From an uncultured Methanosarcinales archaeon (GTDB lineage: Archaea; Nanobdellota; Nanobdellia; Woesearchaeales; SKGA01), in contig CAYRYB010000001.1 in NCBI GenBank assembly GCA_964428395.1, forward strand, positions 139,971 through 203,970: a DNA stretch of 64,000 nt. The letters are read 5' to 3'. Numbering within the stretch: the stretch's first letter is position 1; every line of letters starts with the position of its first letter. Positions 20,940 through 34,632 of the stretch are shown here, piece by piece. A model generated the notes under the pieces. That model had not been told where the DNA came from. It worked only from the letters and a program-made list of their open reading frames with translations, and did no database searches. The translations under genes and the position numbers were made by a program.

Positions 20940-21959
20940 TTATGGACAAGCACTTGCATTAGAATAAGATAATCCATCCACTTCGTAGGTGGTTGCTTCG
21001 TTTTGCGGAATAACAAAATAAAGAGATGCAGGCAAACCAGTAACATTACAAAGTTTTACACCTCCTAAATCATTAAAGTAAATAAAATCCACTTTAATCC
21101 TGTTTTCATAGACATCTTTGTCCTGCGCAGCAATATCTCCTATATTTACTATGCTTTGTATACCATAAGGGCTTGGAGTATTATTATTTTCAAAATGTTG
21201 TAAAAAGGAGGGCGCATTTGTTGAAGCAATATAATACGATTTGTTTGCGAGAAGTTGTAAATTGGTTGTATCATTATCGCTTGTATTTACTAAAAAGAGA
21301 AAGGGCGCTTCTCGTACCGTATTTGGAACAGTATTTTCTGTAAATTTACTATACAATGGATCTCGTAAATCAAAAATAGGTACTTGAGTAGTATACGTTT
21401 TTTCAAAATGCCATGATGCAACATGTTTAGTGTCGGAAATATTAACTTTTGTATGAACGGCAACTGTTATCTTCCACGGATCTTCTTGTGAAAGCGTAAT
21501 ATTAAGAACAGTAATATTTGCTCGTAAACCAATTTGACTTGCTAAGAAATTAACACGAGCAAGATAATCTGAAAAACTTGACGCGTTCATTAAAGTTACA
21601 TTAGTTTGGTTAATAGTGCCATTAAAGAATGCTTCCTCAAATGCAGTCGCTGTATTGTTAAAAAACCCTGCAGAGGTTGATGCGATATAATCTTCTAAAG
21701 AAAGCAACGCTCGAAAGGATGAGATATATGTTGCTCGATGTACATCTTGATTAAAGTCGGTTACAAAATCATTCATGAGCTTTACGCGACTTTCGTAAAT
21801 GTCTTGTTTGTCTTGAAAGGTATATCTGTTCGTTGAAAGGAAAACAAATATGATAATAGTTGCAAGGATTGTTGCGGTTACCAAATAGGTGAATCCTTTT
21901 TTGTTAAATTGTTTCATTGTCATGTCCATACTGTTGTACTTACCGTTGTTGGTCCCCAT
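20940..21959 (-). CDS. pilin-like N-glycosylated protein (class III signal peptide; true start probably at internal MTMKQFNKKG|F)
   Basis: KKG|FTYLVTATILATIIIFVFL is a prepilin-like motif. Many N-x-S/T sequons. Ends in Cys. Confidence 0.55.
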   Translation of the reverse strand: MGTNNGKYNSMDMTMKQFNKKGFTYLVTATILATIIIFVFLSTNRYTFQDKQDIYESRVKLMNDFVTDFNQDVHRATYISSFRALLSLEDYIASTSAGFFNNTATAFEEAFFNGTINQTNVTLMNASSFSDYLARVNFLASQIGLRANITVLNITLSQEDPWKITVAVHTKVNISDTKHVASWHFEKTYTTQVPIFDLRDPLYSKFTENTVPNTVREAPFLFLVNTSDNDTTNLQLLANKSYYIASTNAPSFLQHFENNNTPSPYGIQSIVNIGDIAAQDKDVYENRIKVDFIYFNDLGGVKLCNVTGLPASLYFVIPQNEATTYEVDGLSYSNASACP

Positions 21960-24649
21960 AAATAAGGTACGCCATTTATCAATGTTATCGTGATTTCTAA
22001 ATCTGCTTCTGTTAAATCCACGATGACCTTGCCATTTTTATCAGGGTCTAATTGTTCAAGCAAGTGGTACGTTGCAGAGTCATAGGCATCATCGCTATTA
22101 TAAACAATACTCGTGTTTGTATAGTTACATTGTTTGCTTCCAGAATAACTTGTTGGGATAAGTAAATGTGAGAAAAGCTCTGATTCTGATTGTATGGTCC
22201 AATTACAACCATCATGATACGTAAAAGTTTGACTTCGTGGTGTTGATGAATTAATTAATGCAGTGTAAATAAGTGTGTTATTGGGTGAACAAATTGAATT
22301 GTTAAGTGGCGAGTCCCCTACCTTCATAACAATTGTATTATCTGTTCCAGGAACCAATGTCGTTGAAGGTATTTGTATAAGAAAAGGATCTCCTAGTAAA
22401 ACATAATCATTGCCATAATCACTTAAATTAAAAACAACCACATTATTAACGGTTACTAACTTTGTCCAATGCTTAGAAGAAAATGATGTAACATAAGCAT
22501 TAGTTATTTCTATTCCCTCAGGCAGAGGAATAGTTGCGCTGCAACCACCAAATTGAGCAGACTCAAATGTTAAGGATATTTTTCCTTGTTTATCTACTTG
22601 TGTTAATGGTTCATAGTATAAATCAATGTATGAATTATTATACAGGTGCGCTAGGGAGTAATTACCAACAATATTAAGTGTTTGCGAAGAATAATTTGCT
22701 ACAACGAGTATTTGTTCAGAAATATTCTTGTATATTTGTGCAAGCTGTGAAACATTGGTTGCATTATAGTAAAGCGAGGAATTACAAGCAATTTGTTGCA
22801 TGACTGATTGTCCTGAAGCAGTCATTCCTTCACTAAATCCTATTGCATAAACAGTAATGTTATCTGCGCATGCTTGCTGCGCTGCAGCTATTGCATCGTT
22901 TTGTGATTGCGTTCCATCATTGCCAACAGAAGAATATGTGTGTAAATCACCTCCACAATGTCGCGTTGGTTCACCATCACTTAAAACAACCATAAATTTT
23001 TTGTTCGTTGAACTATTTATCGAATCTCTAGCCCTATTAATTCCACAACAGGTGCATGTTCCGCCTCCTGCAGAATAAGTGTCAATCTCTGAATCTAAAA
23101 CTCCTTTTACATTGGTTAATGCTGTTTGAGGATTTGCGTTTGTTGAAAAATCTACAAGACCAATTTTGTGAAGAAGCGAGTCATTAAGAATAGTTTCTAC
23201 AAAAAGATGATCTGCTTCTTTTGCAATGTCTAAGAGTGTTTTATTACAGGTTGTAGTTGTTTTGTTATAGATAACATGATTTTTTGTTGTTGAAGTTCCG
23301 CCACATTCATTAGAAACGCAAGTTGTTGTATAAGGGCATTCTGTTGAAAACCACCATACCCACCACTTATATTCATATTTGCAGTATTCCACATCATGCG
23401 TGTAATATTCTCCACAATCATTCATACTTCCTGAAACGTCCGTTACGAGAAATGAATCTGATGGTTTGCCTGCGTTAACAACAGTAATGTTTGAAAGATT
23501 GGTCGTTCCTAAGCGCAATGGTATTTCTGTTGGTGGAAGAGTTTGATTTATTCTTGAATAAAGAATATTTTGCGTGATATTTTGTCCTGGAGAAATAAAA
23601 ATAGTTTCATTAGCTAAAGTTACAAACGTATCATATTCATTATACAACGTCAAATTCATAGTCCAATTGCGTATTAGTCCTTGCGCGCCAAAGGCATCAT
23701 ACATGTTTAAGAATCCATCAATTTGTGGGAAGAAATATCTTCTGTAACCAGGTGTTACAGGATCATTTACTGTGTCCGTTGTATACACCACTTTAAGAAA
23801 TCCTCCTGAAATATACGATTCATTTAAATCGCTAGTAAACGCTAAAGTAATATTATTTTTTCCTGCTTGAAAAGAAGTATTGCAAGATATAATGTTCCAT
23901 AAATTTATTTGTCCTACTTGTCCCGTTCTTGGTCCTCCACAAGGATTTTCATTAATATAGAATTGAAATGTTCCTGGTGTTTCTATTTTAAGGTCTGTTG
24001 ATAAAAGTCGTGAAGTAGAAAAATCAGCTGGTAGCGTTAAAGATACCGTGATATTTCCCTGTCCGTAAAATCCTCCAAAATAAGCATAGGCATTTGTTTT
24101 TTTATTGCGTACTTTTTTAAGATAGGCCGAAGAACTTGAACCAGTAATAGGTGCACCTTTTGCAATTCCAGATATCATTCGTCTTGTTATAACCAAATTT
24201 TGTATTGGTGAATCATTTCGTTGAAAGATAGAATCGTTCTCAATTGAAAATTTAATATTCAAATTTGGTGGAAGTGAGGCATTGGTTATTATTTCAAAGA
24301 GTTCTTTTGCTTTGGCAGTTTTATTTAATGCCCAATATTCACCAATTTGTTCTAAAACGGTATTGTTGACATTTGTTATGTTGCCCGTTGTTATCTCACT
24401 AGTTACAAAAGAACTATTCATTTCATTGATTGTTATCGCTCCTAAAACATTAAGAAGATCTTGCGTGATAAACGATTTCTCATTTATTGATGGCTCATAA
24501 TAGGTAACAGAAAGTAATGTTGCTGCAACACCAACTAATAAAAGTCCTGCTAAAAGCGCGTCCATTGAGTAATAAATTCCTTTTTTCTTTATCATTTTAC
24601 TCCCATGAATAAACAATAAGCTGTAATAATGATGCGTTGTAGGCAACAA
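21920..24649 (-). CDS. large pilin-like adhesin with vWA domain (class III signal peptide; true start probably MIKKKG|I at about 24595)
   Basis: KKKG|IYYSMDALLAGLLLVGVAATLL is a prepilin motif. The MIDAS motif LVTDVSGSMND is present, with downstream vWA-like T and D positions. About 60 N-glycosylation sequons and Cys-rich segments. Confidence 0.7.
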   Translation of the reverse strand: MLPTTHHYYSLLFIHGSKMIKKKGIYYSMDALLAGLLLVGVAATLLSVTYYEPSINEKSFITQDLLNVLGAITINEMNSSFVTSEITTGNITNVNNTVLEQIGEYWALNKTAKAKELFEIITNASLPPNLNIKFSIENDSIFQRNDSPIQNLVITRRMISGIAKGAPITGSSSSAYLKKVRNKKTNAYAYFGGFYGQGNITVSLTLPADFSTSRLLSTDLKIETPGTFQFYINENPCGGPRTGQVGQINLWNIISCNTSFQAGKNNITLAFTSDLNESYISGGFLKVVYTTDTVNDPVTPGYRRYFFPQIDGFLNMYDAFGAQGLIRNWTMNLTLYNEYDTFVTLANETIFISPGQNITQNILYSRINQTLPPTEIPLRLGTTNLSNITVVNAGKPSDSFLVTDVSGSMNDCGEYYTHDVEYCKYEYKWWVWWFSTECPYTTTCVSNECGGTSTTKNHVIYNKTTTTCNKTLLDIAKEADHLFVETILNDSLLHKIGLVDFSTNANPQTALTNVKGVLDSEIDTYSAGGGTCTCCGINRARDSINSSTNKKFMVVLSDGEPTRHCGGDLHTYSSVGNDGTQSQNDAIAAAQQACADNITVYAIGFSEGMTASGQSVMQQIACNSSLYYNATNVSQLAQIYKNISEQILVVANYSSQTLNIVGNYSLAHLYNNSYIDLYYEPLTQVDKQGKISLTFESAQFGGCSATIPLPEGIEITNAYVTSFSSKHWTKLVTVNNVVVFNLSDYGNDYVLLGDPFLIQIPSTTLVPGTDNTIVMKVGDSPLNNSICSPNNTLIYTALINSSTPRSQTFTYHDGCNWTIQSESELFSHLLIPTSYSGSKQCNYTNTSIVYNSDDAYDSATYHLLEQLDPDKNGKVIVDLTEADLEITITLINGVPYLWGPTTVSTTVWT

Positions 24650-25097
24650 GACGTTGTGTTGTTACTAAATGTTTATAGGTAATTGAGGATAAATCTGGTT
24701 CACAAGTAAGCGCATCATATGCTAAAGGATATCCATGTAAACAGTTTGTAAGATTGATGATTTGCGTGTTATTTTTAAAAAAGAAAATATATTCATTGGT
24801 TACATGATACAATGTTTTTGTATGATTATAATCAAGAGCATCAAATTGTGTTAATTTAGTCAGGTTAAGACGATAATCATCAGTAATTCCTGGAAGTAAT
24901 ACTGTTGTTACACTCCAATTATTTGGATAACCATCCAAAACAAGTTGATCAGAAATATAAACATTATTTCTGTAAAGCTCTGTGTATGCTCCTGCAGGTA
25001 GAATATCTATAATTATTTTTATTGCAAGAAGTAAAAGAAAGATAAAACCAACGAGGCCTAAAATAAAATCAACGGTAAACATTTGTGCTTTGCTCAT
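24597..25097 (-). CDS. minor pilin (class III signal peptide)
   Basis: N-terminus MSKAQ|MFTVDFILGLVGFIFLLLLAI. Confidence 0.6.
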   Translation of the reverse strand: MSKAQMFTVDFILGLVGFIFLLLLAIKIIIDILPAGAYTELYRNNVYISDQLVLDGYPNNWSVTTVLLPGITDDYRLNLTKLTQFDALDYNHTKTLYHVTNEYIFFFKNNTQIINLTNCLHGYPLAYDALTCEPDLSSITYKHLVTTQRLVAYNASLLQLIVYSWE

Positions 25098-25118
25098 TTT
25101 TATTCTCTTTAGTAAGGT

Positions 25119-25514
25119 TTAGTTTAGTTGTAAAACTCCATTTTGCTTTCGCAAAACATTTGTTCCTTTTATCATGCTTCCATTAATAACAGGAATAACA
25201 TAAAATAATTCTTGATGTGAAAAAAGAATACTCATATATCCATTGCTTGCACTTGTATTGCCAATAACGATAGTATAATTCATATCATTTATTTTTTCAG
25301 GAACGCTAAAGAATCGCTCATAGCCATCCTGTACTTGCGTTCCTAAGAGGAGCTCTTGTTGCAAGCTTTTTCCCAAGTCATTTAGTTGTTCGTACGTGTT
25401 CTGTGTTGTTTTATCCGCTGAAAGGGTGAGCGCTGCCCCTATAACTATGAAAAGGAAAAAAAATCCTGTTATTCCTAAAAGAATAAATTCTATAGATACT
25501 TGTGCTCGTTTCAT
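25119..25514 (-). CDS. pilin (class III signal peptide)
   Basis: N-terminus MKRAQ|VSIEFILLGITGFFFLFIVIGAA. Confidence 0.65.
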   Translation of the reverse strand: MKRAQVSIEFILLGITGFFFLFIVIGAALTLSADKTTQNTYEQLNDLGKSLQQELLLGTQVQDGYERFFSVPEKINDMNYTIVIGNTSASNGYMSILFSHQELFYVIPVINGSMIKGTNVLRKQNGVLQLN

Positions 25515-25516
25515 TT

Positions 25517-25957
25517 TTATGTGTCCGTAAGAAGAACATCGTCAGCTTGTGCTTTTATCACAATAAAATGAGGTCCTTCGAATTTTTTTAATGATCCACT
25601 AAGATTAATAGCAGTCTCTTTAATATAGTCATAATTATACGTTGCCGAAGTCATGTTAAAAATAAGTTCGTTTGACTGCACACTAACGGATTGTATACCT
25701 GAAGGAAATGTTATTCGAACAGTTTTTTGTGCTGGTGGGCCCATAAAATAAACTTCTTGAGCTGCATCAGTAATGAGTGTTGCTGCTCTGTCTAATTGTG
25801 CGTTGGCGATGTCTGATTGTAAATTACTTGTTTGTGTTGTGAAAATGATGATTAAAGGTAACGTCATAAAAAAAGCCACTGAGAAAATGATTAAGTATTC
25901 CATGGCCACTTGACCTTTACACATCCTTTTCATAAAGATAATTGACGCTGAAGGCAT
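25517..25957 (-). CDS. pilin (class III signal peptide; start probably the internal MKRMCKGQ|V)
   Basis: KGQ|VAMEYLIIFSVAFFMTLPLIIIF. Only a 2-nt gap to the downstream pilin gene. Confidence 0.6.
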   Translation of the reverse strand: MPSASIIFMKRMCKGQVAMEYLIIFSVAFFMTLPLIIIFTTQTSNLQSDIANAQLDRAATLITDAAQEVYFMGPPAQKTVRITFPSGIQSVSVQSNELIFNMTSATYNYDYIKETAINLSGSLKKFEGPHFIVIKAQADDVLLTDT

Positions 25958-26043
25958 ATTTAAAGATGATGTCTTTATCGACTAGTTAAAACAAGAAAAA
26001 AAAGTGAATCCTAATGAGATGCAAGAGAAGAAGCAAAGAGAAA

Positions 26044-26072
26044 GAAATAAAGAAAAAAAAGAAAAAAAATAT
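26044..26072 (-). terminator. oligo-T tract (minus strand) immediately after the major pilin stop codon
   Basis: Plus-strand agaaaaaaaagaaaaaaaat equals T-runs on the coding strand 5-30 nt after the TAA at 26077-26079. Archaeal intrinsic terminators are oligo-T runs. Confidence 0.35.
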
Positions 26073-26076
26073 TTAT

Positions 26077-26595
26077 TTACGCGTATTTACCATCTACACT
26101 TCCCGTGTGGGTGATCGTTTGCGTTGTTTCAACATTTGTATAATCCACAGTCAATTCCGCTTTAAATTTATCACCAACAGTAGGGTTTAGACTTGATGGG
26201 TCACAATCCCATTTTAAAAGGAAGGTTCCTCCGTTTGGAATTTGTGTTGTGTCTGCAACAATTGGTGCACCAGAATATGTTCCTGTAATAACAGGGTTAT
26301 TACATTCTACTCCGGTTGCAGGTGAAACATTTCCTGTTAAAGGCAAGGTAATTGCCACACCTTTGTTATTTTTAAATGCTATTTCAATAGAATTGTCAGC
26401 AAGGCTAACTACTGCGTTATCTAAGTTTGCGATTGGTGCAGTGAACGTTGTTCGCTCTGGCAAGAGTTTTTGGGGGCTTAATACACCAAAATATGCCAAT
26501 GCTCCGATTGCCAAAAGTACAACCAAAATTGCCCAACCATACGTCATTAAGAACTCCATGGCCGCTTGTGCTCGTTTTCTCATCATTAAAAACAC
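26077..26595 (-). CDS. probable major pilin (class III signal peptide; likely true start at ATG 26586 rather than the GTG at 26595)
   Basis: N-terminus (M)MRKRAQ|AAMEFLMTYGWAILVVLLAIGALAYFG. The SD-like gaggtg lies 9 nt upstream of the ATG. It is the first gene of the locus, with its own TATA and an oligo-T terminator. Confidence 0.7.
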   Translation of the reverse strand: MFLMMRKRAQAAMEFLMTYGWAILVVLLAIGALAYFGVLSPQKLLPERTTFTAPIANLDNAVVSLADNSIEIAFKNNKGVAITLPLTGNVSPATGVECNNPVITGTYSGAPIVADTTQIPNGGTFLLKWDCDPSSLNPTVGDKFKAELTVDYTNVETTQTITHTGSVDGKYA

Positions 26596-27367: not shown

Positions 27368-27597
27368 TTTTTTCTTTTATTTTTCTTTGTCAAGAGCGTT
27401 TTTTCCAAAGAAGAAAACATAAGAGCAACACGCAAACAAGCAAGGACAGTTGCACTAAAGAGAAAGTCCAAGAAAACAATCTAGCGGTAGCTTAAACACT
27501 TCTTAGCGTTTAATGCAAATAACTTTTTAGGCAGAGCCAGAACTGACAAACATTTATAAATGACTTCTCGTTCTTCAAACATACAGCAAGTTCTCAT

Positions 27598-27672
27598 AGC
27601 GGGATGGAGCAGCCAGGAGTGCTCGCAGGGCTCATAACCCTGAGGTCGGAGGTTCAAATCCTCTTCCCGCTA
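27598..27672 (+). tRNA. initiator tRNA-Met (anticodon CAU), archaeal type
   Basis: Acceptor AGCGGGA/TCCCGCT with A1:U72, the archaeal initiator hallmark. GGG/CCC triple in the anticodon stem. Loop CTCATAA. 75 nt, no encoded CCA. An upstream TATA-like atttataaa lies at about 27552-27560. Confidence 0.85.
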
Positions 27673-27700
27673 TTTCTTTTCAATTCTTCATCAGAAATAT

Positions 27701-27925
27701 TCACATCGAAAACTGGTTCGATTCCTTTCTCAACAAGAAGTGCATTGCTTCTTTAAGTTTTCGCCCGAGGTCGTTGTTTTCTTGCATAATCTTGTCGTGT
27801 CTTGTTTTGATTATCACTTCTAACTCTTCGCCTTTGACAGTAAGTCTAGAGCTAATAAGTGGTGCAGGCACAACAATTGAATGGGAATTTCCCACTTTCA
27901 TCAGTTTTGCAGTGAATTTTACCAT
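27701..27925 (-). CDS. AbrB/SpoVT (swapped-hairpin) family small DNA-binding protein (antitoxin-like)
   Basis: N-terminus MVKFTAKLMKVGNSHSIVVPAPL matches the K-VGNS-x-x-V/I-P signature of the AbrB/MazE/VapB family. Confidence 0.55.
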   Translation of the reverse strand: MVKFTAKLMKVGNSHSIVVPAPLISSRLTVKGEELEVIIKTRHDKIMQENNDLGRKLKEAMHFLLRKESNQFSM

Positions 27926-28004
27926 GTAGCTTTTCCTCCGTTGTTTAAACAGATTGTTATAATGGAAATCACTTAAAATATGAGAATGTTACGCTAAATG
28001 TTAC

Positions 28005-28214
28005 ATGGAAGAGTTATTACCATTATTTCGAAGCAAATTAAAGGTTGCAATACTGGAAAGTCTCAAAGAAGATACTATGAGTCCTATTATGCTTGCAAAG
28101 AAACTAAAGAAACCACGTTCAAGCATTAGTAGAATCATCTTAGAATTGGAAGAATTAGGCTGGGTGAACACGAAGAGTGGTGAGAAAGTTCTAAAAAAGT
28201 TTATAGTTCAGTAA
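28005..28214 (+). CDS. small winged-helix (ArsR-like) transcriptional regulator
   Basis: 69 aa. LAKKLKKPRSSISRIILELEELGWVN is an HTH recognition helix followed by a wing. Confidence 0.5.
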   Translation: MEELLPLFRSKLKVAILESLKEDTMSPIMLAKKLKKPRSSISRIILELEELGWVNTKSGEKVLKKFIVQ

Positions 28215-28219
28215 CATCA

Positions 28220-29176
28220 CTATTTTAATTCTATTTTTGTCAGAATTTGATCAAAAATTGCAGAATATTTCTTAATATTCTCTCGCATTTTTTTGCAATT
28301 CTCAAAATTAAATTCAAAAGATCCATAGAATATTTTCCCACTATCATCAATAGTTTCAGACTTATGAGCCAATTCATTTCGAGGTGTTATTATTTCTGTA
28401 CAATATGATTCAAAACTAAATGGTGTAGTTAAACCGATTTTGTTTATTACAGTTTCAACCGCTTCACCTTTTTTATGAGTTCCAAAAATAAATTCATCAA
28501 TGAAACTGTTAAATGAACTCCCGGAATATTCTTTTTTCTCTTGTACTAGATCTTTTACGTATAAATTCAAATATTTTTTTAAATCTTTTAGTTTATTAAA
28601 AGACCAATCTACTGTCTTGGTTATTACTTCCTCAATAAAAAAATCAGGAGTCACTAATTCTTTTTCAATAGAGCGACGTAAGATTTTTTTCTTTTTATCA
28701 TCAAGATCAGACACTTCCGCCATAACCAATCCTCGCAAATTTTCAGGATCTTGAATTTTTTTTATAGTACTTAAAAATATTTGTTTAAACTTTTCTAAAA
28801 AGAAATGATCATCACGCTCAGAACAATAAACTCCATCAATTTGTCTTTCACTTATAAGTTTTCTAAGTTTTTCCTCATCAGTTTCTTGATTAGAATAAAA
28901 AAGAACATCGGTATAATGATTACCATCTCGGATGTCTTTTATTATATCAGCACCAGATTCATAATATCCTAAGTCAAAGTCCATTAAAATGATATTATAA
29001 TCACTATATGTTCCATGATCCTCATTAAATTCACTTTTCGTCGAGATTTTTATTATATCTGCATCATTCTCACAGATAAACCCTTCCAATTGAACAATTT
29101 TTACAACTTCTTCACTTAACTCTTCAACCCAGTCTGGATCATCATCAAACCACAGAATTCTATACCTTAACTTCAT
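28220..29176 (-). CDS. response-regulator receiver (REC) domain protein with C-terminal effector-like domain bearing an Rx4H (HEPN-like) motif
   Basis: REC signatures: beta1 RILWFDDDPD (acidic pair) and beta3 IILMDFDLG (phospho-acceptor Asp). The ~200-aa C-terminal domain contains ...ITPRNELAHK (R-N-x3-H). Its stop overlaps the start of the GHKL/HK gene. Confidence 0.6.
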   Translation of the reverse strand: MKLRYRILWFDDDPDWVEELSEEVVKIVQLEGFICENDADIIKISTKSEFNEDHGTYSDYNIILMDFDLGYYESGADIIKDIRDGNHYTDVLFYSNQETDEEKLRKLISERQIDGVYCSERDDHFFLEKFKQIFLSTIKKIQDPENLRGLVMAEVSDLDDKKKKILRRSIEKELVTPDFFIEEVITKTVDWSFNKLKDLKKYLNLYVKDLVQEKKEYSGSSFNSFIDEFIFGTHKKGEAVETVINKIGLTTPFSFESYCTEIITPRNELAHKSETIDDSGKIFYGSFEFNFENCKKMRENIKKYSAIFDQILTKIELK

Positions 29177-31692
29177 TCTTTTATCTCCATCAATAATTTA
29201 ATTCCTTTCTTTTCGCTTGAAACCGTTAACTTACCATTAAGATCTTTGACAATATTTTTTGAATCATATAATCCAAGACCTGATCCTCCTGTTGTAGATA
29301 TTCCTTGTTCAAATATTGTTGCTGGGTTTTTACTAAATCTTTTGGGCAAACCATCACCATCATCTTTTATTTCAACAATTAATGAAGAACCTTTTTTAGT
29401 AAATGAAAAGAATATTTTTTTAGCGTTCATCTTTCGAGCATTATCTAATATACAGTCAACCATGTATGCAATCTCGAACGGTTTAATACGTTTTTTGAAG
29501 GAAAATTCTTCATCTTGAATTGTATATATTTTTAATGTTGAGAGCTTATTCTTATGAATATTCTGCAAATACTGTTTGAAAAAATCCACTAAATTTACTT
29601 TTTTTCCATTAAGTTCTTCCGTTAATCCTCCTTGAATTGCAATATTCGCTATTGTAAATATTTGTTTATTAACTCGATTTAATTTCTTTGCTTTCTCTAT
29701 CACTCCGCCAGTTTCTGATTCTTTCAAAATTTTCTTTGTTAATAATTCAACTGTTTGAGATTTTGTTTTAATATAATGATAATATCGAACAAGTTGTTCC
29801 TTGCTCTGGTCTTGTATCGATTTCAAAAAAATGTTCTGAGTTTCTAATTCTTCTTTTTCTTCTTTACTTTTCTTCGCTTCTTCTTCGGCTTTTTTTGCTT
29901 TTGATTCCGCTTTCTTTTTCTCTTCTTCAGCTTTTTTACTTTTTTGTTCAGCTTGTTTAGCTTTCGATTCTGCTTTTTTTCTTTTTTCTTCTTCCCCTTT
30001 TGCCTTTCTAGTTAATAAAGCAATCGACTTTTTTATATTCGACATTCCTTTTGAAGTATTTGTATCAAGTTTTATGCCCTCATTTTCTATCTTGGAGATG
30101 AAGTTATTAATTTTTTCATGTTGCTCTTTTGCTAAACCTTTCATTAAGTCAGTATCTATTGTTAAATTAAGAATATCATTCTTATTAGATGTTATGAGAA
30201 TAACTTTACTGAGCTGAGATAATATTGTTAGTTCTCGTTCGGTTTGATCTCCTTTAAGAGATTCTCTTCTAGGGTCATAATCAAATATTCCTGCCTCAAC
30301 ACCTTTCAAATAAGGATCGTTTTTATCTTTGACTTTATCCCAATCAATAACATCAGAAACAAAGAGTTCTAACTTTCTTAAAACATAATAAAAAAATGAT
30401 TTTGTAAAATCAGTTCTACCAATTGCAGTTAATTGATCATACGATGGGTTTTTAACTAATCCTTCCCTATTTGAGACAATCGTAAATAGCTCATTCTTTG
30501 GATCAGTTATTTCTATTCTACCAATACAGTCTCGAGTTCCTAGATACCTTCTTTGACCTTGAGTTTTACGTATATCAAGACCTAGCCAATCATTTCCGAA
30601 ATCTCCAAATGGACTTAATCTAAAACCATTAATAAAAAGAAATATGGATCCAAATTCAACAGACCTATATCCCATCTGACGTTTAAAATATGCTTTGGCA
30701 TATTGGTTTAAGTAAGTTAAGTGTACTCTAATATTTTTTAATAAAGAAAACTTGTTCTTTTCTTTAAGATGAAAAACAACTCGATTCCTATCTTTTAGTG
30801 TTGTAGTTATATATTTTCCATCTTTAGAAATTTCACAAGTGATTTCTGAAACCCTAAATGCTAACGAATCAAATATTTTATTTTCTACAAGAGTTCTATT
30901 CAGATAATTGTATTCTTCAACATCATCTTTATCAGTTAAATCATAATCTTCTTTGCTCAGATCTTCAACACATAACGATATTTTAAATGAATTTTTTTGT
31001 ATACTTTGATTCGGATTAATTAACTTTTCCAAGTTTTTTTTTAAATCAATTAAAGGAGTATAATAATATTCATCTTGCGATAATTCAATCCATTCTCTTC
31101 TTAATCGACTAATCTCAAGTATTGTTCCTGCACTTTCAATTGTATACCCAATCTTTTTCTTTAATTCAGTTGGTGTTAACGAATCCATTAACTTGATTCC
31201 TACTTTTTGTATAACATCATTAACAGAATTCTTATTCTCGAAATCATTCCAGTTAATTTGCAAATGCCATATTTTTGAATCTTTTTTAGATTTAGTATAA
31301 AGATCTAAATACTCACCAAGCCGATCACAAGAAAATCTGCCTACTCCTTTCGCCCCTGCTTGTACTCGTCCAAACTTTTCTCTATCTTCTCTTTTTGAAG
31401 AATAAGCAATGTTAAGCCATTTTTCTTCAATGTCCTTTAAAGACATCCCTTCTCCTGAATCAACAATTAATATTTTAGAGGATGAATCAATTAGTTCATC
31501 CCTTACAGTCGAATTTGTATCAAAATTAATGTTCTTTTTCAGATTTCGAAAATGTATTTTTACTAATTTAGAACCAGCATCAAATGAATTTTTAATTAAT
31601 TCTTGAATAGCTACAAAATCATCGTTAATTAAATCCTGTCCAAGAACATTTTTTAAGTGTGCATTTGTTTTAAAGTGTAAAGTTTTAACCAT
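29173..31692 (-). CDS. 839-aa protein: N-terminal MORC/MutL-type GHKL ATPase + charged coiled-coil + C-terminal histidine-kinase module (putative HisKA_2-like H-box + HATPase_c)
   Basis: N-terminus ELIKNSFDAG (Bergerat N-box), VDSGEGM (G1) and GAKGVGRFS (G2). Middle KAKGEEEKRKKAESKAKQAEQKSKKAEEEKKKAESKAKK. C-terminus YYHYIKTKSQTVELL (putative phospho-His region), ILDNARK (N-box), DDGDGLP (G1) and GGSGLGL (G2). Confidence 0.7.
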   Translation of the reverse strand: MVKTLHFKTNAHLKNVLGQDLINDDFVAIQELIKNSFDAGSKLVKIHFRNLKKNINFDTNSTVRDELIDSSSKILIVDSGEGMSLKDIEEKWLNIAYSSKREDREKFGRVQAGAKGVGRFSCDRLGEYLDLYTKSKKDSKIWHLQINWNDFENKNSVNDVIQKVGIKLMDSLTPTELKKKIGYTIESAGTILEISRLRREWIELSQDEYYYTPLIDLKKNLEKLINPNQSIQKNSFKISLCVEDLSKEDYDLTDKDDVEEYNYLNRTLVENKIFDSLAFRVSEITCEISKDGKYITTTLKDRNRVVFHLKEKNKFSLLKNIRVHLTYLNQYAKAYFKRQMGYRSVEFGSIFLFINGFRLSPFGDFGNDWLGLDIRKTQGQRRYLGTRDCIGRIEITDPKNELFTIVSNREGLVKNPSYDQLTAIGRTDFTKSFFYYVLRKLELFVSDVIDWDKVKDKNDPYLKGVEAGIFDYDPRRESLKGDQTERELTILSQLSKVILITSNKNDILNLTIDTDLMKGLAKEQHEKINNFISKIENEGIKLDTNTSKGMSNIKKSIALLTRKAKGEEEKRKKAESKAKQAEQKSKKAEEEKKKAESKAKKAEEEAKKSKEEKEELETQNIFLKSIQDQSKEQLVRYYHYIKTKSQTVELLTKKILKESETGGVIEKAKKLNRVNKQIFTIANIAIQGGLTEELNGKKVNLVDFFKQYLQNIHKNKLSTLKIYTIQDEEFSFKKRIKPFEIAYMVDCILDNARKMNAKKIFFSFTKKGSSLIVEIKDDGDGLPKRFSKNPATIFEQGISTTGGSGLGLYDSKNIVKDLNGKLTVSSEKKGIKLLMEIKE

Positions 31693-32992
31693 TTAGACTC
31701 GCCTTTGAACAACAATTACAGTTTAGCTCTGTATTATTACTTTGAGTTATATTAGTAACTTCTCCCTTAATAGATGAGGGCGAGCTTCTTTTTAAATATT
31801 CTTTCAAAACAATGCCTAAAATCTCTCCAAATAGCGGAGGTATAGCATTTCCAATTTGAGTATACCTTGGCACTTCTAATTTTCTGTTTTTTCCACCCGT
31901 AGTGTATTTTCCCTTGAATTCAAAAGTATCGGGGAATGACTGAATTCTTGCATATTCTCGAACAGTTAAAATTCGAGGTTCTTCATAATGAATATAATCA
32001 TCAGGTAGAGTTGTTAAAGTTGGAGATGTCCCATTAGAATCTAAAGGAATTATGCAATGTTTCTTTAGATTAAACTTCTTCTTTAACTCGTCAGAAACAT
32101 TTGTATTTCTATTTGCCTTGCTTAATATGTATCTAAATCGTTTTATTGTTTCAGTTGAATGATTTGGAAAACGATGACTATCAGGATTTGAAGATCGAGA
32201 TAAACCTTTTTTCATCAATGATTGATATGAAGAATTTTTTTTACCATAGAGTCCTGCTTTGAATCGAGGATTGTCTGGAGAATTAATCAACCCATTAGAC
32301 TGAAACAAGTCTCCTATTGCATCCTTTACAGTTGTTTTGCGAGTAATAGGCAAACCTTTCTGCTTTAGAAATTCTTTCTTATATTGATAAATATTCTCAA
32401 ATATGTCTTGGGCTTTACCTTTTTTAGTTCCAATTATAATACATCTTTCCCTTCTTTGTGGTACGCCAAAATCAGAGAAATTTATGATTTTCCAATCAAC
32501 ATCATATCCAAACTCTTTCAATTTGTTAGTGACAATTTCAGAATAAGCAATTCCTCGAGAATTATTTTTTGTTTTAAATCCTATAGTGAACCCCTTAACA
32601 TTTTCAAAAACAATTACTTGAGGTTGTACTAATTCTACAAAAGTTAAATATAATCTCAGAAGAAGATTCCTAGTGTCAGACTCATTTCTACGACCTGCCA
32701 TTGAAAACCCTTGACATGGTGGTCCCCCCACCAGTAAAGTTACGTTTCCTCTTAACGAACGTAATTGATCTGATTTTTCATCTATTAATTCATTAATATC
32801 ATGATTTGACTTTTCCAACCAAGGCACCCATTTAAAGTGCTTTGTCTTATCAATTAAATTAAATTTTAATGTCTCGAAAGCTAAAGAATCTTTTTCAATT
32901 GCAAATAGTCCCTTCCAATTAGCATTATGAAGTCCTAATGAAATGCCTCCACAGCCTGCAAAAATATCTATATAGTTGAAACTAGACTTCAT
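31685..32992 (-). CDS. DNA (cytosine-5)-methyltransferase (Dcm family)
   Basis: Motif I IDIFAGCGGISLGL. Motif IV GGPPCQGFSMAG. Motif VI ENVKGF. Motif X QIGNAIPP. The start of the downstream GHKL/HK gene overlaps by 8 nt. Confidence 0.9.
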   Translation of the reverse strand: MKSSFNYIDIFAGCGGISLGLHNANWKGLFAIEKDSLAFETLKFNLIDKTKHFKWVPWLEKSNHDINELIDEKSDQLRSLRGNVTLLVGGPPCQGFSMAGRRNESDTRNLLLRLYLTFVELVQPQVIVFENVKGFTIGFKTKNNSRGIAYSEIVTNKLKEFGYDVDWKIINFSDFGVPQRRERCIIIGTKKGKAQDIFENIYQYKKEFLKQKGLPITRKTTVKDAIGDLFQSNGLINSPDNPRFKAGLYGKKNSSYQSLMKKGLSRSSNPDSHRFPNHSTETIKRFRYILSKANRNTNVSDELKKKFNLKKHCIIPLDSNGTSPTLTTLPDDYIHYEEPRILTVREYARIQSFPDTFEFKGKYTTGGKNRKLEVPRYTQIGNAIPPLFGEILGIVLKEYLKRSSPSSIKGEVTNITQSNNTELNCNCCSKASLNG

Positions 32993-33046
32993 GTTAACAC
33001 TTTAGACGAACCTGGTTATAAACTTTTCGTTTATAAATGGGTATTA

Positions 33047-33391
33047 TTAAGGATCTGTTTGAGATGTTTTTTTATAAGCATATACCCATGAAGCATCATT
33101 ATCTCCACCACCAGTGCCACCATCTGTTCCAATAGTTTCAATAAAATATTTTTCAATTTCACGTGCTTCTGTAGAGTTCATAGCTTCCCTGAAAGCATAC
33201 CATGCATTTTCTTTTTGTACTTTATGATCTCCAAAGAGTCTTTGCTCGATATTTTGCGTTATTCCTACATACCAACTAGATTTAGCTCCACCTTCCTTGT
33301 TGATATGAGCTAGTATTTCTTGTTTAATTTGTTCTTTTTCTTTTTTCATTTTAAACACTAGTAATAGATTGGTTAAGATATATTTAAACAC
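33047..33391 (-). CDS. small GIY-YIG superfamily (YhbQ/UPF0213-like) putative nuclease
   Basis: 114 aa. SWYVGITQNIEQRLFGDH matches the second half of the GIY-YIG signature (Y-x-G-x-T-x-N/D-x-x-x-R-x-x-x-H), with a downstream Glu. Confidence 0.45.
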   Translation of the reverse strand: MFKYILTNLLLVFKMKKEKEQIKQEILAHINKEGGAKSSWYVGITQNIEQRLFGDHKVQKENAWYAFREAMNSTEAREIEKYFIETIGTDGGTGGGDNDASWVYAYKKTSQTDP

Positions 33392-33481
33392 TCTGTGTTG
33401 ATGTCCAGTGAGGTATAGAAATTATTGAATTGCACTTATAAATCAGGATAAAAAACTAAAATTAAAGGCTCTCACGAGCCC

Positions 33482-33598
33482 TCAAAACTTCAATTCATAG
33501 CTTTTTCCTTCTTCAAGTATTTTTGTTTCTATGAAACCTTCAAGCACTTCAAAACCATATTCATCGCCAATTTTGACTAGTTTTGCTTCTATTTTCAT
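33482..33598 (-). CDS. possible 38-aa ORF with AbrB-like N-terminal beta-hairpin motif (MKIEAKLVKIGDEYGFEV...)
   Basis: Found manually. ATG preceded by the SD-like aaggtg and a TATA-like atttataaat about 31-40 nt upstream (plus coordinates 33629-33638). Shares the AKL-x-K-x-G motif with ORF 27701..27925. Confidence 0.3.
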   Translation of the reverse strand: MKIEAKLVKIGDEYGFEVLEGFIETKILEEGKSYELKF

Positions 33599-33762
33599 TT
33601 TTATTGCACCTTCACACACTTTTTTGCATTTATAAATAATTGATTAGAATTAAGTTGGTCAGTGGTTCTAGTCAAGACTTCGCTATTGTCCTTTAATTTT
33701 TTACCAGCACATTTTTTCCGAATATGTTCTAAATAGAATATTTTCTGAATAGAAAGAGAGTT

Positions 33763-34632
33763 TTAAAATAACGTTCCTTGTAATTCATCCGCTTTTCGTT
33801 CTTGAGCAGTTTTCTTTCCTCTTATAGCATAATCATTTTTAAAAGCATATGCTCGTGGAAAAGAAACCTCGTTTGCTAAAGGACAGTACTGTTCACACAC
33901 CGCATCATTTTTCATTAAACACAATTGTCCTGCAGTCCATAAAAAAGCATCGAGTTCAAAAATATTCACGCCTTGCTCTTTTGCAAGATCACGAAGAAAG
34001 TAACTATATTTCTTTTTTGTTTCAGTTGATTGCAAAGGATTTTCGTTGCGTATTATTCCTAAAGCAAGAGCTATATTATAATCGTGAAAGTCAATTTTAG
34101 GACAAAAATCTTCTTCATGAGAAAAAGTGAAAAGGGTATGATCTCGAAGAGTGTGCACATAAAGCCCCGAAAGTCCTTCTGAAAATCCTTTAAAATCTAA
34201 AAGTCTTTTTTGTGTTGTTACAATGTCTTTATCTAGTACATTATAGATATCTCCACCATACTTACTTTTAATGAGTTCGTAAGATGTTTGTAGATAATCT
34301 CCTTTTTTAGCCATTGAATGCATAGACTGTCGAGCAAAAATTGCTGCTTCTTTTTTTGAAAGAGAAAGGATGCTTTCAAGAGTAAAAAAAATTTTATCTT
34401 TTTTATACAAAGCGAGAACTTCTTTATAATGTTTTTTTGACTCTTTTTGTGTGTCAAAAAGAACAGCCAGAAAAGCAAGAAGAGCAAGTCGCTTTGGCGT
34501 CTCTATTTCTTTAAGAGGAACTAAAAGGTCTTGTTGATAGGCAAGATGAGAAAATTGTTCATTAAATTTCTTTCCTTGTTTCTTGAAGGGTTCAATAAGT
34601 GTTTTTACTGCTCGTTCCTTATCAAAATTCAC
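33763..34632 (-). CDS. hypothetical protein (289 aa), Cys cluster near the C-terminus
   Basis: Clean ORF. C-terminus C-x7-C-x3-C. No confident family assignment; a DNA-repair-like role is only a guess. Confidence 0.45.
   Translation of the reverse strand: MNFDKERAVKTLIEPFKKQGKKFNEQFSHLAYQQDLLVPLKEIETPKRLALLAFLAVLFDTQKESKKHYKEVLALYKKDKIFFTLESILSLSKKEAAIFARQSMHSMAKKGDYLQTSYELIKSKYGGDIYNVLDKDIVTTQKRLLDFKGFSEGLSGLYVHTLRDHTLFTFSHEEDFCPKIDFHDYNIALALGIIRNENPLQSTETKKKYSYFLRDLAKEQGVNIFELDAFLWTAGQLCLMKNDAVCEQYCPLANEVSFPRAYAFKNDYAIRGKKTAQERKADELQGTLF

Follow-up and report, generated by a model that had tools for sequence, protein, structure and literature searches.

A methylase-linked kinase and response regulator cassette with a putative receiver-gated HEPN RNase output

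Within a 64,000-nucleotide stretch of DNA from an uncultured Methanosarcinales archaeon (GenBank contig CAYRYB010000001.1, positions 139,971 to 203,970 of the forward strand; hereafter, the window), we analysed a gene encoding a 318-amino-acid response regulator. The gene closes a compact minus-strand cassette, in which a C5 cytosine DNA methylase gene comes first and the gene for an 839-amino-acid kinase second. The cassette is best read as an abortive-infection or restriction-like system tied to DNA methylation, whose HEPN RNase would be controlled by phosphotransfer from kinase to receiver; RNase activity, gating and defence are the predicted parts of this reading. The domain identities, catalytic-type residues, gene coupling and conservation of the cassette are established by sequence comparison and structure models. 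Together they make it probable that the three genes form a self-contained conflict system, composed of the methylase, a paraMORC-type GHKL ATPase–histidine kinase and a receiver–HEPN output, that operates through the five-step mechanism proposed below. A preliminary description, made from the DNA letters and their translations, had read the gene as a receiver domain fused to a putative HEPN effector with phosphorylation-gated RNase activity, a reading that is supported as far as computation reaches.

A probable HEPN domain at the C terminus of the regulator

The regulator has 241 full-length homologues of about 300 amino acids each. We assessed conservation over 129 representatives of 50%-identity clusters, which share 23–47% pairwise identity with the window protein. 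Three segments underlay the preliminary description: RILWFDDDPD (residues 6–15), IILMDFDLG (residues 62–70) and ITPRNELAHK (residues 263–272), the last of which had been taken for a HEPN-type pattern. On its own, an Rx4H motif is weak evidence, because 16% of shuffles of the 318-amino-acid protein contain one; the chance rate is 41% for Rx4–6H and 0.7% for RNx3H. Conservation bears the pattern out. R266 and H271 occur in 129/129 representatives and N267 in 128/129, and an Asn right after the Arg is the usual arrangement in most HEPN RNases. Moreover, among 86 loci drawn from many phyla, 83 have RNxx[A/G]H at the corresponding position, and the remaining three are truncated or frame-shifted reads. 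If the Rx4H had arisen by chance in a helical linker or coiled coil unrelated to HEPN domains, the gene would be a receiver with an uncharacterised tail; the shuffle rate and the lack of a significant Foldseek match would fit this. Against it stand the invariant position of the motif across representatives and loci, the Asn that follows the Arg and the fact that five HEPN families are the only recurrent non-receiver Pfam matches; we therefore rejected a chance origin on conservation and regard it as highly improbable.

Conservation in the effector domain extends beyond this motif. R148 is found in 129/129 representatives and G149 in 128/129, and K140 and R298 are near-invariant. The most conserved stretch is NLRGLVMAE, which lies inside the segment aligned to the RiboL-PSP-HEPN profile and presumably has a functional role. 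Residues ~172–250 form a variable, low-confidence insert. In most bacterial homologues this insert carries a CxxxCxHxW cluster (alignment columns ~232–240), possibly a small metal-binding knuckle, which is missing from the window protein (residues ~205–220) and its closest relative.

Sequence models point in the same direction. With E ≤ 0.001 as the limit, a profile of residues 122–318 retrieved representatives of 921 clusters made at 50% identity, a large family that includes abundant gut Bacteroidales, and in all of the best 150 of these 921 the domain stands behind a receiver. Apart from receiver models (Response_reg and cREC_REC), HEPN families were the Pfam families matched by the most of the 129 members, all below threshold: HEPN_Swt1 in 11, RiboL-PSP-HEPN in 6 (best 1e-5), MAE_28990 in 3, Abi_2 in 2 and HepT-like in 2. 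The top match of the family consensus was RiboL-PSP-HEPN, with an E value of 0.0011 over positions 19–190 of the 191-position model. A profile search of the domain against PDB sequences gave only a protein of unknown function at E 0.35. As the preliminary description had stated, the C terminus is not a recognisable helix–turn–helix (HTH) output: we found no HTH or other DNA-binding match in it.

The preliminary description had named the lack of a predicted alpha-helical HEPN fold as an outcome that would speak against it. The domain-only model of residues 122–318 is all-alpha (predicted local distance difference test (pLDDT) 84.7; predicted template modelling score (pTM) 0.76), and HEPN structures are among those similar to it. 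The structures listed as similar include TTHA0636, Roquin, HI0074, three HEPN toxins, YutE, AbiA, AbiF, HepS and MtlR; PDB entries in this list are 1wwp and, for the HEPN toxins, 8xdj, 7ae2 and 5yep. Designed helical bundles score almost as well as HEPN structures against the model, and the Foldseek search that the preliminary description had proposed, run against the PDB, returned nothing under E 0.6. Because the designed bundles score nearly equally and Foldseek is uninformative, the fold evidence alone is moderate. Conservation, fold and sequence models taken together make membership of the HEPN superfamily very likely, and the domain appears to be a distinct HEPN family nearest the RiboL-PSP, Swt1 and MAE_28990 group.

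A conserved receiver domain with an offset arginine

The full-length AlphaFold model of the regulator (built on 35 homologues; pLDDT 83.6) shows a receiver fold of five beta–alpha units in residues 1–121. The family profile matches CtrA at 4.9e-5, with D66 falling on the phospho-Asp segment of CtrA, and Response_reg is matched by 110/129 relatives at E ≤ 1 (best 4.8e-12). Both the acidic pair and the phospho-Asp of the preliminary description are present and conserved: D66, at the end of beta-3, occurs in 129/129 representatives, and in the pair after beta-1 position 11 is E or D in 129/129, with D in 105 and N in 23 at position 12. The description had also noted a T/S position in beta-4, which calls for one correction: the counterpart of CheY T87 is not the conserved T89, at the start of this strand, but S95 at its end (S in 121 and T in 7 of 129).

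The sole departure from a textbook receiver is the missing beta-5 Lys, which is unusual among phosphorylatable receivers. The aligned position 119 holds S, A or T. Two residues past it lies R121 (28814–28828), with R in 105 and K in 7 of 129 representatives, which may stand in for the Lys.

A paraMORC-type kinase and a C5 methylase

The 839-amino-acid kinase, which has more than 3,176 homologues, carries two ATPase modules, matched by Pfam HATPase_c_3 (6.4e-19, residues 27–170) and HATPase_c (5.9e-15, residues 742–831). In the N-terminal GHKL module the Bergerat motifs are intact and invariant in the family alignment (E31, N35 and D38; D78xGxG; G113xKGxGR; G189–T190). This part matches the NCBIfam BbrUII/HgiDII restriction-enzyme family at 9.2e-11 and Hsp90 N-domains in the PDB at ~1e-7. 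The middle region that follows it is also conserved (NGFR..P.G and LGTRD..GR). The kinase family profile aligns to HK853 (2c2a) over the DHp and catalytic domains at 6.4e-11, and the invariant H639 aligns exactly with the phospho-His of HK853 (SHELRTP). The N box (D746 and N751), G1 box (DDGDGL, 777–782) and G2 box (GGSGLGL, 802–808) are all invariant. Ahead of the phospho-His helix, residues ~560–620 form a Lys/Glu/Ala-rich coiled-coil linker (KAESKAKQAEQKSKKAEEEKKKAESKAKKAEEEAKK), which exceeds that of three homologues in length and repetitiveness and gives spurious TolA and TAF4 matches.

From its sequence, the protein is a complete histidine-kinase core fused to a paraMORC-type GHKL ATPase; it has the N-terminal GHKL module with intact ATP-binding motifs and the restriction-modification neighbourhood expected of paraMORC ATPases (Iyer et al. 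2008), which are also expected to carry an S5-fold domain after the GHKL. Kinase and regulator together appear to carry all residues needed for His–Asp transfer.

The methylase is matched by Pfam DNA_methylase (4.9e-60), TIGR00675 (1.1e-49) and the PADLOC type II methyltransferase model (6.5e-86). The motifs FAGCGG, PPCQGFS, ENV, QRR and GNAIPP can all be read from its translation, and judged by these catalytic motifs it looks like an active C5 enzyme. Vsr and HhH-GPD neighbours at other loci fit an active, 5-methylcytosine-producing methylase. Pfam, NCBIfam and PADLOC scans found no nuclease domain in the cassette besides the HEPN-like one, and so no cognate restriction endonuclease.

Distribution, neighbourhood and variants of the cassette

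Scanning one genome from each species yielded 80 loci, from Methanosarcina, Aenigmatarchaeota, Bacteroidota, Campylobacterota, Patescibacteria, Verrucomicrobiota, Spirochaetota, Bacillota and others. The prediction thus concerns a common system, with more than 3,000 kinase relatives in archaea and many bacterial phyla. Among the 70 loci with enough upstream sequence, the methylase is adjacent in 67, and the order methylase, GHKL-kinase, regulator is kept in 65, the remaining five being partial. Four metagenome contexts have the same order, and metagenome contexts also place the cassette beside integrases or within defence islands that hold HNH, extra Dcm, MTaX1 and McrB-like genes. Immediate neighbours are enriched in extra Dcm, HNH_2, integrases, HhH-GPD, Vsr, ResIII and AbiEii, and downstream HNH or other nucleases are a minority (7/129 neighbours). 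We looked for a conserved fourth gene and found none that was universal, only small downstream groups (a second Dcm, HNH_2, HhH-GPD, Vsr and a Campylobacterota-specific open reading frame (ORF)).

Distant plasmid relatives of the kinase pair with receivers that bear other C termini. On Stenotrophomonas rhizophila plasmid CP031730 (3751–9116), Dcm and a 711-amino-acid GHKL-kinase are accompanied by a 212-amino-acid receiver-only protein and a 226-amino-acid ORF; the receiver aligns to that of the window family with an hhalign probability of 90% and has no Rx4H. The 226-amino-acid ORF has SHG and SCG motifs, a convergent SIR2 gene (8e-24) adjoins this cassette, and a TnsA gene lies nearby. On Enterobacter mori plasmid NZ_CP119171 (4947–8169), a 718-amino-acid GHKL-kinase overlaps a 357-amino-acid receiver protein (Response_reg 2.6e-6) whose C terminus is unrelated to HEPN; an AbiJ-NTD4 gene lies nearby, and no methylase was seen upstream. 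The CP031730 variant suggests that the same kinase chassis drives other effectors, and receivers with varied C termini on a constant chassis point to effector swapping, which is typical of immune systems.

Proposed mechanism and alternatives

We propose that the cassette works in five steps. First, the methylase, with its motifs intact, would mark the host's own DNA. Second, the N-terminal MORC-like ATPase module would act as the sensor, most likely of unmethylated or foreign DNA; a module of the same kind sits in the methylase-paired BbrUII/HgiDII restriction enzymes. Third, sensing would switch the fused kinase, whose core and His are placed by alignment, to autophosphorylation on H639. Fourth, the phosphoryl group would pass from H639 to D66 of the receiver, both residues being present and the two genes translationally coupled. 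Fifth, receiver phosphorylation would lead to dimerisation, so that two HEPN domains could form a composite Rx4H RNase site, a step proposed because of the general behaviour of receivers and HEPN RNases. Cleavage of RNA would then halt either the cell or its invader, in the manner of abortive infection.

So arranged, the cassette recalls a restriction-modification system that has a His–Asp phosphorelay to an RNase in place of the endonuclease. The preliminary description had called the regulator the effector arm of its operon, which agrees with a translationally coupled kinase that has an intact phospho-His and with a conserved methylase. A broader proposal, that there is a class of immune system in which methylation state is relayed through a MORC-type ATPase and its own kinase to a receiver-gated HEPN RNase, with no DNA endonuclease, is possible but more doubtful than not.

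Several results weigh against the proposed mechanism. The window regulator scores 17.2 bits against Pfam Response_reg (PF00072), below the 30.2 cut-off, and an offset Arg instead of Lys may make the phosphorylation chemistry atypical and affect its kinetics. All Pfam HEPN matches lie under the gathering thresholds (19.4 bits for the consensus against a 28.4 cut-off). When the window protein was scanned directly against Pfam, NCBIfam and PADLOC, neither HEPN nor defence families matched it, and PADLOC v2 contains no model that fits the regulator or the kinase. Among the cassette neighbours there is no conserved antitoxin or buffer gene. A tblastn search of plasmid and phage collections with the regulator found no match, and IMG/VR holds only two relatives; because the cassette hardly occurs in these plasmid, phage and viral sets, its mobility can be read only from its patchy distribution and neighbouring integrases. 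Finally, the sequence does not fix the sign of the regulation.

Some of these points would suit an ordinary regulatory two-component system, the C-terminal domain of which binds nucleic acid or protein non-catalytically, as in the inactive HEPN-type MtlR, and tunes the methylase. Such a regulator would resemble the controller protein of a restriction-modification system and act on methylase expression or activity. The lack of any HEPN Pfam model at threshold agrees with this, a harmless output would make the missing conserved antitoxin less surprising, non-catalytic HEPN domains exist (PMC3710099), and a 2021 study of methylase-linked pairs, discussed below, describes the pair as no more than a new two-component system (PMC8011034). 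However, neither HTH nor other DNA-binding models match the domain, and the retention of R266, N267 and H271 at such low pairwise identity argues for catalysis over binding. An ATP-driven MORC-type sensor would also be superfluous for controlling one methylase, and the defence and mobile contexts and patchy spread over domains of life likewise speak for a conflict system. The invariance of R, N and H makes an output that only regulates, without catalysis, the less likely case, and we consider this alternative unlikely overall.

Another possibility is that the logic is inverted. Here, a kinase active on methylated self DNA would keep the HEPN domain phosphorylated and silent, and loss of the signal through infection, cassette loss or kinase inhibition would free the RNase, making the cassette an addiction or toxin–antitoxin-like module instead of a detector of foreign DNA. 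Restriction-modification cassettes often behave as addiction modules, and a sequence that fits either sign of regulation and the lack of a separate antitoxin or of a buffer receiver such as DtcB of Detocs would suit this logic. In most characterised receivers, however, phosphorylation drives dimerisation, and the HEPN RNase active site requires a dimer, so that the phosphorylated state would be expected to be the active one. We therefore give the inverted logic little weight and retain phosphorylation-activated RNA cleavage as the best reading.

Cassette layout and flanking genes

The coordinates of the cassette and its domains are given in Table 1. Read in the sequence, the kinase stop and regulator start overlap by 4 bp (ATGA), and the methylase end and kinase start by 8 bp. 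The cassette has a GC content of ~29%, compared with 33–37% in the flanks, and a strong negative GC skew (28000–34000), and a tRNA-Met gene (27597–27673, plus strand) lies 550 bp past its 3′ end. Low GC, GC skew and the nearby tRNA-Met suggest a horizontally acquired island; neither a direct repeat of the tRNA end nor an integrase was found within the window.

Table 1. Position of the cassette genes, domains and key residues in the window
Feature	Position	Strand	Basis
Response regulator gene (receiver and HEPN-like domains), 318 amino acids	28220..29176	minus	ORF, ATG start
Receiver (REC) domain, residues 1–121	28814..29176	minus	D11/D12, D66, S95, R121
Phospho-acceptor D66 codon	28979–28981	minus	
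HEPN-like all-alpha C-terminal domain, residues 122–318	28223..28813	minus	
RNELAH, R266–H271, HEPN RNase catalytic-type Rx4H motif	28364..28381	minus	column conservation
NLRGLVMAE, residues 146–154, second helix of effector domain	28715..28741	minus	column counts, 129 relatives
ParaMORC-like GHKL ATPase–histidine kinase fusion, 839 amino acids	29173..31692	minus	Pfam
N-terminal GHKL ATPase module (MORC/MutL/Hsp90-type), ~residues 1–200 of kinase	31093..31692	minus	Bergerat motifs
DHp helices of kinase, ~residues 619–680	29653..29838	minus	profile alignment to HK853
Putative phospho-His H639 codon of kinase	29776–29778	minus	
Histidine-kinase catalytic ATP-binding domain	29200..29469	minus	Pfam HATPase_c
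C5 cytosine DNA methyltransferase, 435 amino acids	31685..32992	minus	Pfam, TIGR00675, PADLOC

Upstream of the methylase by 54 bp, and on the same strand, is a GIY-YIG ORF (33047–33391, minus), with a Pfam match of 2.1e-5 that is barely over threshold; it is not among the recurrent neighbours at other loci and is probably not part of the system. Between the tRNA-Met gene and the cassette are a 74-amino-acid ORF (27701–27925, minus) with an AbrB/SpoVT-like KVGNSHSIVVP motif and no Pfam match, and a gene for a 69-amino-acid winged-helix protein (28005–28214, plus) that matches HVO_A0261_N and IclR-type HTH models; neither is kept beside homologous cassettes. Further away, four small minus-strand ORFs (24597–25097, 25119–25514, 25517–25957 and 26077–26595) encode archaeal class-III, type IV pilin-like signal peptides. 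Adjoining them is a gene for a 909-amino-acid VWA-domain protein (21920–24649, minus; Pfam VWA 1.8e-11), and a T2SSE-type ATPase is encoded further along the source scaffold. The region 21920–26595 is probably an archaeal pilus or adhesion cluster, and it points to a low-GC archaeal host, perhaps a DPANN-like one.

Comparison with known systems

The gene trio itself is already known. Bellieny-Rabelo, Pretorius and Moleleki (2021, Genome Biol Evol) described the Response_reg_2/HEF_HK two-component-like elements, which are linked to C5 methylases and derived from paraMORC (PMC8011034). These share with the window system a kinase architecture of HATPase_c_3, DHp-like His helix and HATPase_c, tight adjacency of the receiver gene, linkage to a C5 cytosine methylase, soluble proteins and an interpretation as paraMORC descendants (PMC8011034). 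They differ in that the paper covers bacteria only, mostly Proteobacteria, whereas the window family also occurs in archaea, and in their conserved beta-5 Lys where the window family mostly has Arg (PMC8011034). Neither the window regulator nor the kinase matches PF19192 or PF19191 at E ≤ 0.1. Even at E ≤ 1, the regulator does not match PF19192, which is outside the 25 families most matched by its relatives, and none of four kinases tested matches PF19191. With these defining models unmatched and the receiver matching the ordinary Response_reg instead, we rejected membership of PF19192/PF19191; the window cassette is best described either as a branch sister to the Response_reg_2/HEF_HK assemblage or as a part of it that had not been recognised.

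The 2021 paper names no output domain and mentions neither HEPN nor RNase (PMC8011034). We also found no kinase–receiver link in the 2008 MORC paper (Iyer et al. 2008) and no receiver–HEPN fusion in the 2013 HEPN survey (PMC3710099), and the CoCoNuT and DefensePredictor papers place receivers or HATPases only in other contexts. Within the literature searched, identification of the output as a receiver-gated HEPN RNase, and hence of restriction-like abortive infection, appears to be new. If the mechanism holds, the methylase-linked elements of 2021 would gain a concrete output, an RNase, and the cassette would be a tractable prokaryotic model for how MORC ATPases turn DNA state into a signal. 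Two-component phosphotransfer would then be joined to epigenetic self-marking and to a MORC-type, DNA-dependent ATPase, three well-studied modules in a combination not seen before. On the broader, more doubtful proposal above, the cassette would in addition be the first two-component system to sense DNA as its ligand, and it would couple a MORC ATPase to signalling in a prokaryote.

HEPN RNases linked to restriction-modification offer a second comparison. Anantharaman et al. (2013) reported Ymh-HEPN domains fused to paraMORC ATPases in restriction-modification neighbourhoods, and the PrrC/RloC anticodon nucleases are restriction-modification-linked HEPN RNases (PMC3710099). As predicted for the window system, a HEPN RNase is coupled to DNA modification and an ATPase (ABC-type or paraMORC), and in PrrC/RloC and Ymh-HEPN this coupling is a second line of defence. 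The fusions of HEPN to paraMORC bring together the two modules that also meet in the window cassette. In Ymh-HEPN–paraMORC and PrrC, however, ATPase and HEPN share one polypeptide or a restriction complex, whereas the window system has two proteins and a predicted His–Asp phosphorelay, and its HEPN domain is nearest RiboL-PSP, Swt1 and MAE_28990, not Ymh or PrrC. The BbrUII/HgiDII type II restriction enzymes (NF050001) resemble the window kinase in their N-terminal GHKL module and C5 methylase pairing; the match covers the GHKL part only (profile positions 44–171 of 659, scoring 41 where the cut-off is 550), and their nuclease part contrasts with the kinase core of the window protein. Assignment to a classical type II restriction-modification system was rejected, as the cassette has no cognate endonuclease.

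The closest validated counterpart in logic is Detocs (Rousset et al. 2023), a defensive two-component system with a toxic receiver-fused effector, in which the His and Asp have been shown to be required for defence (bioRxiv 10.1101/2023.01.24.525353). In both systems, as far as genes predict for the window cassette, a histidine kinase phosphorylates an effector-fused receiver, abortive infection follows and effectors can be swapped. The Detocs sensor is a TPR region and its main effector a PNP ATP nucleosidase, in contrast to the MORC-type ATPase and HEPN-like domain seen here; Detocs has the buffer receiver DtcB and no methylase, whereas the window cassette has a methylase and no standalone receiver. 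We rejected membership of Detocs, given that the cassette has no TPRs, no standalone receiver gene and no PADLOC match, and only the receiver–effector logic is shared. If the proposed reading is true, defensive two-component systems would comprise a second family, that of the window cassette, in addition to Detocs.

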